A stretch of DNA of 26,985 nucleotides from an uncultured Candidatus Saccharibacteria bacterium (GCA_964480905.1 CAYZRO010000001.1:1-26985); one strand, 5' to 3'. Shown: positions 4,426 to 19,149, counted from the stretch's first letter. The notes: a model not told the origin generated them from the sequence alone. Numbers and translations: made by a program.

Positions 4426-4776
4426 ATGGAATCTTGTATTTTTTGTCAAATATTAGAAGGGAAAATACCAACAAAATTTCTTTACCGCGATAGAGAAATT
4501 GCCGCTTTTTATGATATACATCCGATAGCTCCTGTTCACATTCTTATTATTCCTGTAAAACACATTCCTTCTATTGTGGATTTGACGCCGGCAGATACAG
4601 AATTGGTTGGCAGAATGATACTGGTGTCAAAAGAGCTTGCCGAGAAAGAAAATATCGCCCAGGATGGTTATAAATTGCTTTTTAGGGTTGGAAAGCATGG
4701 CGGTCAAGAGATTAATCATATTCATTTACATCTAATTGGTGGGGCGCCATTAAAGGAAGAAATTCGTCCTAAATAG
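4426..4776 (+). CDS. HIT (histidine triad) nucleotide-binding protein, HinT-like
   Basis: CIFCQI N-terminus; HIHLHLIGG histidine triad. Confidence 0.95.
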   Translation: MESCIFCQILEGKIPTKFLYRDREIAAFYDIHPIAPVHILIIPVKHIPSIVDLTPADTELVGRMILVSKELAEKENIAQDGYKLLFRVGKHGGQEINHIHLHLIGGAPLKEEIRPK

Positions 4777-4811
4777 CGGTAAGATAAATATTAAAAATAA
4801 TATAATAAGAA

Positions 4812-4819
4812 AAGGAGGT
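4812..4819 (+). promoter_or_regulatory. Strong Shine-Dalgarno site of rpsU
   Basis: AAGGAGGT, 8 nt before the GTG start at 4828. Confidence 0.85.
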
Positions 4820-4827
4820 GTATATAT

Positions 4828-5106
4828 GTGGTCATTGAGGTTAAAAAGAGAAAAACAGAAACAATTAGCAATTTAATTAGGAGATTTACTAGATCTGTTC
4901 AACAAAGCGGGATTTTGATTCAGGCTCGACAGAGGCGATTTTATAGAAAGCCAAAAAATAAAAGAAAGAAAAGAGAAAGCGCTTTACGGCGCCAAGAGAT
5001 ACTTCGTTTGAGAGAAGAATTAACAAAGCAAGGATTGCTGAGAGAGGGAGAAATGATACCAAAAGATAAAATTAAAAAATTAGATGAGCTTAAAGAAAAA
5101 AATTGA
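4828..5106 (+). CDS. rpsU: 30S ribosomal protein bS21 with C-terminal extension
   Basis: IEVKKR..E.ISNLIRRF.RSVQQSGIL...RRFYRKP..KR pattern; conserved HIT-rpsU-yqeY gene order. Confidence 0.88.
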   Translation: MVIEVKKRKTETISNLIRRFTRSVQQSGILIQARQRRFYRKPKNKRKKRESALRRQEILRLREELTKQGLLREGEMIPKDKIKKLDELKEKN

Positions 5107-13230: not shown

Positions 13231-13267
13231 AAAAGGTAGATCTAATTTGTTTCCGGTCTACCTTTTT
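13230..13267. terminator. Bidirectional terminator between convergent comEC and the antisense gene
   Basis: aaaaaggtaga (13230-13240) pairs with tctaccttttt (13257-13267), giving a U tract on both strands; overlaps the TAG of the minus-strand ORF. Confidence 0.6.
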
Positions 13268-13638
13268 AATATGTTTATTATTTTTTCTTTAACCTCTTTC
13301 ACTCCTTCTCCAGGTTTCCTTACAATGAAATTTATATCACTGGTATGTTTTCTATATCCTTCTTTTTTTCCTTTGGTTGATGATTTTGCATTCAGGAAGA
13401 GTTTTTGTCCTTCTTTATTAATAACGACAAAATCTATTCCTTTTTTCCAATCTAAATATTTATTTCCTTTTGAAAAGTTTATTATTTCCCCCTCACTTTT
13501 CAGCTCTTTTAGAGCTTTTGCTACCATTTTTTCACTTATTATTCCTCTTTCAAGAGATGTTTTTTTTACTTTCTTTAGTATTTTTGTTTTAGGATTATAT
13601 TGAATATATTTTATACTTTTCTTCGCTTTTTTATACAT
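13258..13638 (-). CDS. Small basic hypothetical protein with a PD-(D/E)xK nuclease-like motif pattern
   Basis: Strong SD (TAAGGAGGGT) 5-6 nt before the ATG. Motifs RG..SE..V, D..KGIDFVV and LFLNAKSS. The fold assignment is by eye only. Confidence 0.65.
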   Translation of the reverse strand: MYKKAKKSIKYIQYNPKTKILKKVKKTSLERGIISEKMVAKALKELKSEGEIINFSKGNKYLDWKKGIDFVVINKEGQKLFLNAKSSTKGKKEGYRKHTSDINFIVRKPGEGVKEVKEKIINILKR

Positions 13639-13723
13639 TTTTAACCCTCCTTATTTTTTAAGTAACTAATTATATTAAATAATAAAATTTAAAACTTGTA
13701 AATAGCATATTCATATTTTACAA

Positions 13724-16865: not shown

Positions 16866-18968
16866 ATGAAATTAGTTATTGTTGAAAGTCCAACTAAAGC
16901 TCGAACTATCCAAAAATTTTTGGGAAAGTTTTTTGTAGTTAAGTCAAGTTACGGTCACATTCGTGATTTGCCAAAGAATGAATTGGGAATAGACGTTGAA
17001 AATGATTTTAAGCCAAGATATGTTGTTCCTCTGAAGGCAAAGAAAATAGTAAGCGAACTTAAGAAAATAGCTTCGCGGGCAAAAATAGTTATTTTGGCCA
17101 CTGATGAAGATAGGGAAGGCGAAGCAATCGCTTGGCATATCGCTCAAACGCTAAATCTTGGCGACTATTTTGCAGGCAAAGAAATAAAGAATAAAAAAGA
17201 AAAGCCTTATCAAAGGATTGTTTTTCATGAGATTACAGAAGGAGCAATTAAACAGGCCTTAGAAAATCCTCGACCAATAAATTTTGATTTAGTGAATGCT
17301 CAACAAGCGAGGAGAATTTTAGACAGATTGGTTGGTTATGAACTTTCTCCTTTTTTATGGAAAAAAGTAGCTAAAGGGTTGTCTGCTGGTCGGGTTCAGT
17401 CAGTAGCTGTTCGTTTGATCGTAGAGAGAGAGGATGAAATTAAATCGTTTAAGCCAGAAGAATACTGGACAATTGAAGCTGAATTAGCACCGCCCAAATC
17501 GCAAAGAATATTTTTAGCCAAATTAATTAAGAAAAATAATCGAGCTTTGCCTAAGTTAGGCATTAAAAATAAAGAGACAGTTGAAAAAATAATAAAGCAG
17601 TTAAGGAAGACGCAATTTCAAGTCAAAAGAATTAATTCTAAAAAAATTAATAGAAATCCATTGCCTCCCTTTACCACAAGTACTTTACAACAAACAGCAT
17701 CTAATTGGTTTGGCTTTTCGGCAAAACAAACAATGCGATTGGCTCAGCAACTTTATGAAGGGATTAATTTAGGTGATAAAGGTCGGGTGGGCTTGATTAC
17801 TTATATGAGAACAGATTCTCTGAATTTGTCTAACAGCGCTTTGGCAGATATTCGTCAAGTTATTGACAAGAAATATGGCAAAAAATTTTTGGCTGTTCAA
17901 ACGAGAATTTATAAGACTAAAAACAAAGGCGTTCAAGAAGCTCACGAGGCTATCCGTCCGACTCAACCTTTTCTTGCCCCTGATGATATTCGTCAATATT
18001 TGGACAATAAGCAGTTCAAACTTTATCAGTTAATATGGCAGAGAACAATAGCTTGTCAAATGTCTCCAGCAGTTTTAGAAACAACTGTCGTTGATGTTCA
18101 AGCTGGTCAATATATTTTTCGAGCCACTGGTAACAGAATTCAATTTGAAGGATTTTTGCGAGTTTATCCGATAAAAATAACAGAAGCATTCTTGCCCGAT
18201 TTAGAAAAAAATCAGATATTGAGTCTAATTGACCTTAAATCTTATCAGCATTTTACTCAACCACTTGCTCGTTATTCAGAAGCTAGTTTAATAAAAGCTT
18301 TGGAAAAAGAAGGTATTGGACGGCCTTCCACTTATGCTCCTATTATTAGTACTATTCAGGAGCGAAATTATGTGTTTAAAAATGAGCAAAAAAGATTCCA
18401 GCCGACTGAGATGGGTGTTTTGGTTACAGGAATTTTAGTTAAACATTTTCCTCAGATTGTTGATGTTAAATTTACAGCCAGAATTGAAGAAAAGTTAGAT
18501 AAAATCGCTTTAGGAAAATTAAAATGGATTTCTGTTATCCGCGATTTTTATTCTCCTTTTAAGGATAATTTAAATAAAAAATATAAAGAGATAAATAAGA
18601 AAGAATTAACCGAAGAAAAAACTACAAGAAAATGCCCTCAATGCGGAAGTGATTTAATTATTAAATTAGGACGTTATGGTAAATTTTATGCTTGTTCAAA
18701 TTTTCCCAAATGCAAGTATACCGAGCCTTTAAAGTCTCCTAATATCAATGTGCCTTGCCCTAAGTGTTTAGAAGGGGAGATTTTAGAAAGACATACAAAA
18801 AAAGGAAAACTTTTTTATAGTTGTAGTCGTTATCCCAAATGCGATTACGCTTCTTGGGATAAGCCAACCGGTCAGCGGTGTCCTAAATGCGGACATCCTT
18901 TAGTAGAAAAAGGGAAAAAGATTAAATGTTCTAATAAGGATTGTGATTATTCAGAAGATAAAAGTTGA
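16866..18968 (+). CDS. topA: DNA topoisomerase I (type IA) with three C-terminal zinc ribbons
   Basis: IVESPTKA, ATDEDREGE, SAGRVQS, ITYMRTDS (catalytic Tyr), GIGRPSTY; repeated CPxC..C....C. Confidence 0.99.
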   Translation: MKLVIVESPTKARTIQKFLGKFFVVKSSYGHIRDLPKNELGIDVENDFKPRYVVPLKAKKIVSELKKIASRAKIVILATDEDREGEAIAWHIAQTLNLGDYFAGKEIKNKKEKPYQRIVFHEITEGAIKQALENPRPINFDLVNAQQARRILDRLVGYELSPFLWKKVAKGLSAGRVQSVAVRLIVEREDEIKSFKPEEYWTIEAELAPPKSQRIFLAKLIKKNNRALPKLGIKNKETVEKIIKQLRKTQFQVKRINSKKINRNPLPPFTTSTLQQTASNWFGFSAKQTMRLAQQLYEGINLGDKGRVGLITYMRTDSLNLSNSALADIRQVIDKKYGKKFLAVQTRIYKTKNKGVQEAHEAIRPTQPFLAPDDIRQYLDNKQFKLYQLIWQRTIACQMSPAVLETTVVDVQAGQYIFRATGNRIQFEGFLRVYPIKITEAFLPDLEKNQILSLIDLKSYQHFTQPLARYSEASLIKALEKEGIGRPSTYAPIISTIQERNYVFKNEQKRFQPTEMGVLVTGILVKHFPQIVDVKFTARIEEKLDKIALGKLKWISVIRDFYSPFKDNLNKKYKEINKKELTEEKTTRKCPQCGSDLIIKLGRYGKFYACSNFPKCKYTEPLKSPNINVPCPKCLEGEILERHTKKGKLFYSCSRYPKCDYASWDKPTGQRCPKCGHPLVEKGKKIKCSNKDCDYSEDKS

Positions 18969-19020: not shown

Positions 19021-19056
19021 TAAAAAATAAGCCCCTTGGGTCTTATAGGGGCTTAT
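19021..19056 (-). terminator. Intrinsic terminator with a U tract only on the minus strand
   Basis: ataagcccct (19027-19036) / aggggcttat (19047-19056). The minus strand continues ttttttat; the plus strand continues aaaag. Confidence 0.6.
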
Positions 19057-19149
19057 AAAAGAAAAAGCAAAAAGGAGGGTAAGAGGGAATAATAACACAG
19101 AAAAGGTGCTAATTTAAGCTTATAATTTATTTAGAACATGTCAAGTTTT

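Follow-up and report, generated by a model that had tools for sequence, protein, structure and literature searches.

The rpsU locus and its extended Shine-Dalgarno sequence

The 26,985-nucleotide stretch of DNA that was analyzed (GCA_964480905.1, CAYZRO010000001.1:1-26985; the window, below) is contig C1 of a 466-kb metagenome-assembled genome of 63 contigs (33% G+C, 87.6% complete) from an uncultured Candidatus Saccharibacteria bacterium. The element under study is an extended Shine-Dalgarno (SD) sequence, AAAGGAGGTG, which precedes rpsU, the gene for ribosomal protein bS21. It is well supported that AAAGGAGGTG pairs, as a gene-specific extended SD, with the canonical 3' tail of 16S rRNA, and that core genes of this genome initiate translation without SD pairing. 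The features of the locus are listed here; the leader and spacer were read from the sequence, and the C-terminal extension was defined by alignment with 22 relatives and with solved bS21 chains.

4777..4810, plus strand: intergenic, A/T-rich leader that separates the rpsU SD from the HIT-family gene (4426-4776)
4811..4820, plus strand: extended SD AAAGGAGGTG, complementary over 10 contiguous bases to 5'-CACCUCCUUU-3' in the canonical 16S tail
4821..4827, plus strand: 7-nt spacer TATATAT between the last paired base and the GTG
4828..5106, plus strand: rpsU coding sequence for bS21 (PF01165), 92 amino acids, GTG start, stop codon at 5104-5106, 3' end overlapping the start of yqeY (5084)
5014..5103, plus strand: lineage-specific C-terminal extension of bS21, EELTKQGLLREGEMIPKDKIKKLDELKEKN, codons 63-92

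The duplex between AAAGGAGGTG and GAUCACCUCCUUUCU has a calculated energy of -16.4 kcal/mol and a contiguous match of 10 bases. The first-pass annotation of this DNA had pointed to a perfect AAGGAGGT at 8-nt spacing before rpsU, and this motif is present at 4812-4819, 8 nt before the GTG; pairing adds one base on each side, leaving the 7-nt spacer. The in-frame GTG at 4828 is the rpsU start, and an out-of-frame ATG at 4826-4828 overlaps it (ATGTG) and opens a 16-codon open reading frame (ORF).

The A/T-rich leader contains TATAAT at 4801-4806, and a consensus scan of the 51-nt intergenic region 5' of rpsU found no full -35/-10 promoter on the plus strand. The leader is unstructured (minimum free energy (MFE) of -0.1 kcal/mol, z = +2.55) and less folded than every one of 200 shuffled sequences, which speaks against an SD hidden in an mRNA hairpin and makes control through such a hairpin unlikely. 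AAGGAGG is found 6 times in the window compared with 4.0 ± 2.0 times in shuffled sequences, so that the number of motifs is within chance and the non-random feature of AAGGAGG is its position. The neighbors of rpsU are the HIT-family gene upstream and yqeY and ybeY downstream, with rplU, pth, lepB, hisS, ftsA, and ftsZ further out.

Among translation genes of this genome, only rpsU has a strong SD

SD usage was analyzed in 499 genes called by a simple procedure based on ORFs and codon bias, 455 of which have their 5' end inside a contig. SD cores were scored 3-12 nt before the start, using internal in-frame start codons as the control, and duplex energies were calculated with a 15-nt tail, using three kinds of mock window as the control. 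Any SD core was found before 34 of the 455 starts (7.5%) compared with 8.8% of the internal in-frame start codons, and AGGAGG was found before 14 starts (3.1%) compared with 0.2% of controls. Weak sites were rarer than in mock windows (43 versus 69-78 at ≤-6 kcal/mol), and strong sites were in excess (20 versus 4-10 at ≤-11 kcal/mol and 4 versus 0-1 at ≤-15 kcal/mol). This genome-wide energy scan had been proposed at first pass; when it was run with the canonical tail, SD sites were no commoner than mock, and rpsU ranked third of 455 by longest starts and fifth by best alternative start. Ranks are given under both start rules because scoring of the best alternative start yields false positives, an internal TTG in infA being one.

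Of the 28 window genes with a 5' end, an SD is present only on rpsU and on one ORF of 126 amino acids, described below. A/T-rich leaders precede rplU, pth, lepB, hisS, the HIT-family gene, yqeY, ybeY, ftsA, and ftsZ, as well as the window ORFs read as nrdD, topA, rpsL, rpsG, and fusA. The first-pass observation that nearly all starts are A/T-rich and without an SD therefore agrees with the 26 of 28 SD-less window genes and with the genome-wide frequencies. Outside the window, the genes for EF-Tu and 17 recognizable ribosomal proteins (S10-spc cluster, contig C10) all have sites weaker than -7.4 kcal/mol, and there is no SD on rpsF, ssb, and rpsR (contig C4) or on the infA gene of this genome.

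Thus, rpsU is the only ribosomal or translation gene in the strong-SD class, but it is not the sole gene with an SD. The earlier claim that rpsU is the only housekeeping gene with a strong SD holds in this form, among translation and housekeeping genes, and has to be read beside the other genes that carry SDs. The annotated strong-SD genes encode a type IV secretion system pilin, a type IV pilin, a methyltransferase, and a DUF218 protein, and most others are without a Pfam match; weaker members of the class include genes that were assigned, from sequence alone, to GlyRS, ThyX, and a response regulator. The members that can be placed are as follows.

C18:206-619, C22:200-643, C63:192-1184, C26:2487-3023, and others: members of the strong or extended SD class, from the SD scan
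13258-13638, minus strand: SD-led gene for a 126-amino acid basic protein with weak GMT-wHTH and DUF234 matches; its SD, AAGGAGGG at 13646-13652, lies 6 nt before the ATG (7 nt from AGGAGG), with a duplex energy of -11.6 kcal/mol

The rpsU SD is conserved in relatives

The source had been read at first pass as a probable lineage of the candidate phyla radiation (CPR), and the genome does belong to CPR/Patescibacteria, with relatives labeled Candidatus Portnoybacteria, Parcubacteria, and Patescibacteria group. Within the same order, an extended SD is present on 26 of 28 rpsU copies (25 of 26 genomes), 5-9 nt from the start, in the forms AAAGGAGGTG, AAGGGGGTG, AGTGAGGTG, or GGGAGGT. When neighborhoods of up to 20 kb were compared, rpsU had the strongest SD in 13 of the 15 SD-containing (SD+) loci where it was called and the second strongest in the other 2. 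In G005, a relative whose genome is 100% complete and whose 16S tail is known to be canonical, rpsU ranks third of 384 on a 377-kb contig, and the same excess over mock is seen.

Across the phylum, a scan with one genome per species yielded 80 named Patescibacteria loci, and the rpsU start could be placed in 78 of them. Fifty-one of these have sites at ≤-12 kcal/mol, and the other 27 have sites weaker than -9 kcal/mol; in all 51 of the named SD+ loci, rpsU has the strongest site of any gene within ±10 kb. Sites at ≤-8 kcal/mol precede 9.9% of rpsU neighbors compared with 13.5% of mock sites; in the SD+ and the SD-less (SD-) groups alike, the neighbors are at about 10% and the mock sites at 12-13%. 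After removal of duplicates, 86 distinct Patescibacteria loci have a bimodal distribution, with 57 strong (≤-12 kcal/mol), 2 intermediate, and 27 without an SD. The contiguous complementarity in SD+ loci is mostly 8-12 nt, and is 6-12 nt in most of the 57. The repetition of the SD analysis across relatives that the first-pass annotation had suggested therefore recovered the element both in the order and across the phylum. A lower frequency of strong-SD neighbors in SD- loci (2.4% versus 4.9%, p = 0.04) was only a weak trend and was set aside as a pattern.

The start codons also differ with the SD. GTG or TTG is used in 33 of the 57 SD+ rpsU loci but in only 1 of the 29 SD- loci (p = 3e-7), which suggests that rpsU initiation depends on the SD. 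Of the 27 rpsU loci that start with GTG, 11 have the ATGTG arrangement; these 11 all belong to the AAAGGAGGTG(A/G/T) type, and their other spacer bases vary.

ATGTG loci: window 4826-4830, L022, L024, L026, L028, L097, L101, L102, L130, L149, L151

In a separate observation on the sister genus represented by G001 (L009, L029, L066, L068, and L228-L247), 5 AAGGAGGTG-led genes were found at ≤-14 kcal/mol compared with 0 mock sites in 180 kb; a 16S gene of G001 was not found. Small ORFs, often rich in Cys, make up an SD-led class in both G005 and G001.

The rpsU SD is associated with the state of the 16S anti-SD

The 16S gene of this genome (C26:794-2329, minus strand) has canonical sequence that breaks off after GAAGTCGT, just before helix 45. 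The sequence past this point (contig C26:1-2329, L001) contains a LAGLIDADG homing-endonuclease-like ORF and is read as an intron, inside which the contig ends; exact-pattern scans of metagenome contigs for the 16S 3' exon gave no match. In same-order relatives with an intact 16S 3' end, 15 of 15 read GGATCACCTCCTTTCT, with CCUCC kept. The most enriched G+C-rich 5-mers before the starts of this genome are GGAGG (15 versus 2), AGGAG (17 versus 5), and GAGGT (10 versus 3), and GGAGA and GAGAT are not enriched upstream of these starts. By the evidence of the relatives and of the 5-mer enrichment, a canonical 16S tail in this genome is supported indirectly.

The rpsU SD was compared with the anti-SD in all genomes that had a readable rpsU leader as well as a readable 16S 3' end. 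Each of the 21 SD+ genomes (15 from the same order, 4 from Uhrbacteria-like and other groups, and 2 from further families of the class) has a canonical CACCUCCUUUCU tail, in the form GGATCACCTCCTTTCT or GAATCACCTCCTTTCT. In 11 of the 12 SD- genomes, the anti-SD is altered or lost: 5 have CATCTCC, 1 has CATTTCT, and 5 have no recognizable anti-SD, with tails such as GGAACACTTAAAC or GGATTAATTCAATG. Fisher's test of the association gives p = 6e-8, a value that is uncorrected for shared ancestry and that draws on many families. A canonical tail is almost always accompanied by an rpsU SD, although core genes do not use SDs.

One genome, G437, has a CAUCUCC tail and carries GAAAGAGAUGA (GAGAUGA) five bases upstream of the rpsU ATG. 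This leader pairs at -12.6 kcal/mol with the tail of G437 itself compared with -7.9 kcal/mol with the canonical tail. This change from a G-C to an A-U pair appears to be a natural covariation like that in Chryseobacterium (PMC7797042), with the limited weight of a single case. The SD/anti-SD association and the G437 pair indicate that base pairing to the 16S tail is how the rpsU element works. Very probably, then, an SD-anti-SD interaction that is specific to rpsU among core genes is functional in these bacteria.

Some further observations concern the variant tails. A variant 16S tail behind the GAAAGGAAGGTG SD of the Uhrbacteria-like group was considered and rejected, as the tails are canonical and the helix has a one-base bulge. 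The CATCTCC tail had only 4 matches in an even sample of 400 Patescibacteria genomes and is therefore clade-restricted. No bS21 gene was detectable in G112, G137, and G261 (L197-L199; one family, tail GGATCATCTCCTTTTT; completeness 84-88%), and a bS21 search in several anti-SD-less genomes of the class (G103, G130, and G401) gave no match.

bS21 has a conserved C-terminal extension

The rpsU product matches the Pfam family PF01165 (Ribosomal_S21) over residues 5-56 with 34.6 bits (cut-off 27). It also matches solved bS21 chains (best E = 8.5e-10), in alignments that stop at residues 51-65. These chains are 51-88 amino acids long (full-length B. subtilis 57, E. coli 71) compared with 92 here, so that the C-terminal extension remarked on at first pass is real. 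The extension, EELTKQGLLREGEMIPKDKIKKLDELKEKN, consists of a conserved K-x-G followed by a mixed-charge tail with an acidic cluster and reaches ∼30 residues past a typical bS21. When proteins of the same order were aligned, K67 and G69 were invariant and E73 nearly invariant, and the acidic cluster was followed by I-P-K or by aromatic and basic residues.

The tail after K-x-G is at least 10 amino acids long in every SD+ bS21 in which it could be located, and at least 2 acidic residues are present in 77 of these 80 tails. The median tail of SD- proteins is 8 residues, and 7 of these proteins have 4 or fewer. In these 7 the tail is missing; five of them include those of the anti-SD-lost genomes G272 and G333, and the other two are the rpsU paralogs of G001, which encode proteins of 72 amino acids and are both without an SD and without the C-terminal tail. 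This combination of tail-less, SD-less rpsU with a retained SD-led class fits the tail as a coupler of bS21 to the anti-SD, in a single case.

A proposed feedback through bS21-lacking ribosomes

Extended rpsU SDs (9-13 bp, <-13 kcal/mol) in SD-poor Bacteroidota have been tied experimentally to bS21 autoregulation (PMC7797042, PMC9976891, PMC13000457). In Flavobacterium johnsoniae and other Bacteroidia, rpsU is autoregulated by bS21-lacking ribosomes (Jha et al. 2021, PMC7797042; McNutt et al. 2023, PMC9976891; PMC13000453 and PMC13000457 (2026)). We model the mechanism proposed here on the F. johnsoniae demonstration. bS21, perhaps through its extended C-terminal tail, would restrict the anti-SD. 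As a late-assembling and exchangeable protein, it would be missing from some 30S subunits, whose anti-SD would be freer and which would initiate on rpsU mRNA better than replete subunits. Synthesis of bS21 would then rise when bS21 is limiting and fall when ribosomes are replete, closing a negative feedback loop.

We hold with middling confidence that negative feedback through bS21-lacking ribosomes, the best available mechanism for the rpsU SD, operates here. The first-pass suggestion of a Bacteroidia-like logic in this lineage is borne out as far as the SD-poor genome and the rpsU outlier kept in relatives are concerned; its second half, restriction of the anti-SD by bS21 and the feedback that would result, we infer.

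The genomic parallels with Bacteroidia are several. Both have SD-poor genomes with a canonical anti-SD in the lineage, and both have an extended rpsU SD (10 bp and -16.4 kcal/mol here versus 9-13 bp and -14 to -21 kcal/mol in Bacteroidia). The rpsU SD shifts with a variant anti-SD in one lineage here and in the Chryseobacterium group there, and weak SD-like sites are under-represented before starts in both.

The differences lie in phylogeny and in the proteins. The lineage belongs to another phylum, and its bS21 has 92 amino acids, compared with 64 in Bacteroidia, and a mixed-charge tail. The Bacteroidia signature of bS21 is Tyr54, which stacks on A1534 of 16S rRNA, and the pocket for the 3' tail is formed by K37, F50, and N56 of bS18 together with W100 and R103 of the C-terminal helix of bS6. 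The bS6 protein of this genome (C4:12529-13008; 159 amino acids) has a ∼60-amino acid Lys/Glu-rich C-terminal extension and no Trp, and bS6 is of comparable length in 29 other genomes of Patescibacteria irrespective of the anti-SD state. A PDB sequence search with the window bS21 did not have the F. johnsoniae entry 7JIL among its matches. A large part of the class here, unlike Bacteroidia, has lost the anti-SD altogether.

Chlorobia provide a closer comparison in one respect, being likewise SD-poor, with unusually strong rpsU SDs and a bS21 C-terminal region without Tyr54; their mechanism was inferred to resemble that of Bacteroidia without being the same (PMC9976891). Unlike the lineage described here, Chlorobia are Bacteroidota. 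Eleven other contact residues of bS21, bS18, and bS6 are kept in Chlorobia. Because the defining genomic features are those of the Bacteroidota rpsU loop and its structural signatures were not recovered here, we file this system as one that works like that loop and not as a proven member of it.

Classical autogenous control of ribosomal proteins (S4, S7, S8, S15, L1, L4, L10, and L20) acts through free protein that binds an mRNA mimic of its rRNA site. The feedback proposed for rpsU would resemble such control in acting on translation of a ribosomal protein mRNA and in depending on how free protein and rRNA are balanced. It would differ in that the leader is unstructured here and the proposed sensor is the composition of the ribosome itself.

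Evidence against anti-SD restriction, and alternative explanations

Several observations weigh against control of the rpsU SD by bS21. First, ∼15-25 other genes of this genome have strong SDs, some equaling rpsU, compared with typically rpsU alone in Flavobacteriales; genome-wide, 4-9 genes including rpsU are at ≤-15 kcal/mol. The anti-SD must therefore be usable at least part-time, and the ribosome is not simply SD-blind. Second, the 16S 3' exon with the anti-SD and the 23S gene are absent from all 63 contigs. Third, one Terrybacteria genome (G056), alone among the 12 SD- genomes, has a canonical tail yet no rpsU SD, and G001 keeps an SD-led class yet has SD-less rpsU; together these show that the link between SD and anti-SD is not obligatory. 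Co-loss of SD and anti-SD is, moreover, the outcome expected of any functional SD, with or without feedback.

The proteins add further points on this side. The position of Tyr54 corresponds to Arg55 in the window protein, which has no aromatic residue after Y39; this mapping rests on offset counting only (12 residues past S42 of the KPS/T motif, hence from K43 here to R55), and R54 and R55 hardly vary within the order. Frames for bS6 are about equally long in canonical (136-193 amino acids) and anti-SD-lost (143-212 amino acids) lineages, and comparison of bS18 by eye between canonical and anti-SD-lost groups found no obvious difference, so that nothing obvious was seen of a covariation of bS6 or bS18 with the anti-SD state. 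This genome has no SD of the Bacteroidales kind on either rpsR or rpsF, and no SD was found on rpsR in the 27 genomes where it was looked for, in any anti-SD state. As for the bS21 tail, the alignment that had been proposed at first pass bore out a long tail in all locatable SD+ proteins but only a loose tie to the SD: 14 of 38 SD- proteins also have a tail of at least 10 amino acids. We therefore reject the tail as a strict determinant of the SD; it is at most necessary and is insufficient alone.

One alternative is that the rpsU SD is a plain strong ribosome-binding site without feedback. The anti-SD would then be freely available, A/U-rich unstructured leaders would suffice for core genes, and the rpsU SD would secure efficient initiation and offset the weakness of GTG or TTG as the start codon of a short mRNA. 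This explanation accommodates the other strong-SD genes here and in relatives, from which SDs serve more than rpsU, as well as the non-ATG starts that go with the rpsU SD, the co-loss with the anti-SD expected of any working SD, and the failure to find pocket-forming residues of the Bacteroidia type. It leaves unexplained why only rpsU has an SD out of ∼25 translation genes examined, why this SD is unusually long (mostly 8-12 contiguous bases), and why, across orders and classes, it persists on a single core gene when the other core genes are without it. The scarcity of weak SD-like sites before starts relative to mock also hints at avoidance, although A/T-rich leaders could cause it too. On balance, we consider a plain ribosome-binding site rather unlikely.

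An SD-led channel with bS21 as its positive gate would reverse the polarity of the proposed control. E. coli 30S subunits without S21 bind natural SD-containing mRNA poorly, and on this model rpsU and the accessory SD genes would need bS21, giving positive feedback or a switch. Such a gate is consistent with the SD type that is common to rpsU and a small class of accessory genes, among them those for pilins and unknown proteins, with three mutated-anti-SD genomes that are without detectable bS21, and with the frequent absence of bS21 reported in Parcubacteria (PMC9297842). Positive feedback on a stoichiometric ribosomal protein is, on the other hand, hard to square with homeostasis; many anti-SD-less lineages retain bS21, and the polarity is opposite in the only SD-poor lineage studied experimentally (PMC9976891). 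We therefore regard the positive gate as improbable.

A candidate small RNA in the window suggests another possible repressor of the rpsU SD.

19021-19116, minus strand: candidate small RNA of ∼96 nt, between topA (16866-18968) and the next gene, with TTGACA at 19144-19139 on the minus strand

The candidate has a 5' hairpin, a single-stranded, anti-SD-like CCCUCUUACCCUCCUUUUU, a terminator hairpin, and a T-run, and its CCUCC stretch (CCCUCC..CCUCCUUUUU) is unpaired in the MFE fold. Its modeled duplex with the rpsU leader is -16.6 kcal/mol, compared with -16.4 kcal/mol for the 16S tail and -6.3 to -12.5 kcal/mol for eight SD-less leaders, and that with the other SD-led window gene is -15.5 kcal/mol. 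Repression of the rpsU SD and other SD-led leaders by this anti-SD mimic, alone or together with bS21 feedback, nevertheless appears very improbable, because any RNA containing CCUCC pairs with any SD and because the site may be no more than the flank downstream of the terminator of topA.

Loss of the anti-SD in Parcubacteria and wider significance

CCTCCT was detected in only 48% of Parcubacteria 16S genes, and bS21 was among the proteins enlarged in CPR, in a previous survey (Tsurumaki et al. 2022, PMC9297842). That study ties anti-SD loss to loss of uL1, and SDs of individual genes, including rpsU, were not looked at (PMC9297842). Both the anti-SD loss and the enlarged bS21 are reproduced in our data, and the link of the anti-SD state with the rpsU SD, together with the matching pair in G437, is new relative to that survey. 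Among the papers searched, none connects CPR with an rpsU SD.

A broader form of the bS21 feedback can be proposed for many Patescibacteria, although we find it doubtful. Two initiation channels would exist, an SD-independent one for core genes and an SD-dependent one that serves rpsU together with a few accessory genes prone to turnover (for pilins, small Cys-rich proteins, and unknown proteins), the latter gated by bS21 occupancy of the 30S subunit. The gate would act through the lineage-specific bS21 tail, possibly with an anti-SD-mimic small RNA. Lineages that abandon the SD channel would let the 16S anti-SD decay, which would explain its loss in about half of Parcubacteria.

If the negative feedback on rpsU is real, control of bS21 by ribosome composition would be no peculiarity of Bacteroidota and would be either recurrent or ancient in SD-poor bacteria, including Patescibacteria. 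SD-poor lineages would then keep a perfect anti-SD at least partly for rpsU, and a large part of Parcubacteria could have lost theirs because their rpsU is no longer SD-led. The SD/anti-SD association is also a cheap genomic marker that predicts which CPR lineages have SD-responsive ribosomes, which matters for gene calling, for heterologous expression, and for the reading of ribosome heterogeneity.

Frameshift site of prfB and context of SD-less starts

The prfB gene of this genome (release factor RF2, contig C40, ∼2300-2400) has a programmed +1 frameshift site, ..GAC TGT CTT TGA T.., without an upstream SD-like stimulator. E. coli and Bacteroidia prfB carry such a stimulator upstream of the frameshift site, so the CUU UGA site without an upstream SD is a further difference from Bacteroidia. 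At the 351 SD-less ATG starts of this genome (G000), T is found at position -1 in 63% and A in 50-62% at positions -6 to -3, and G and C are each below 10% near the start, giving a UAUG-type context.

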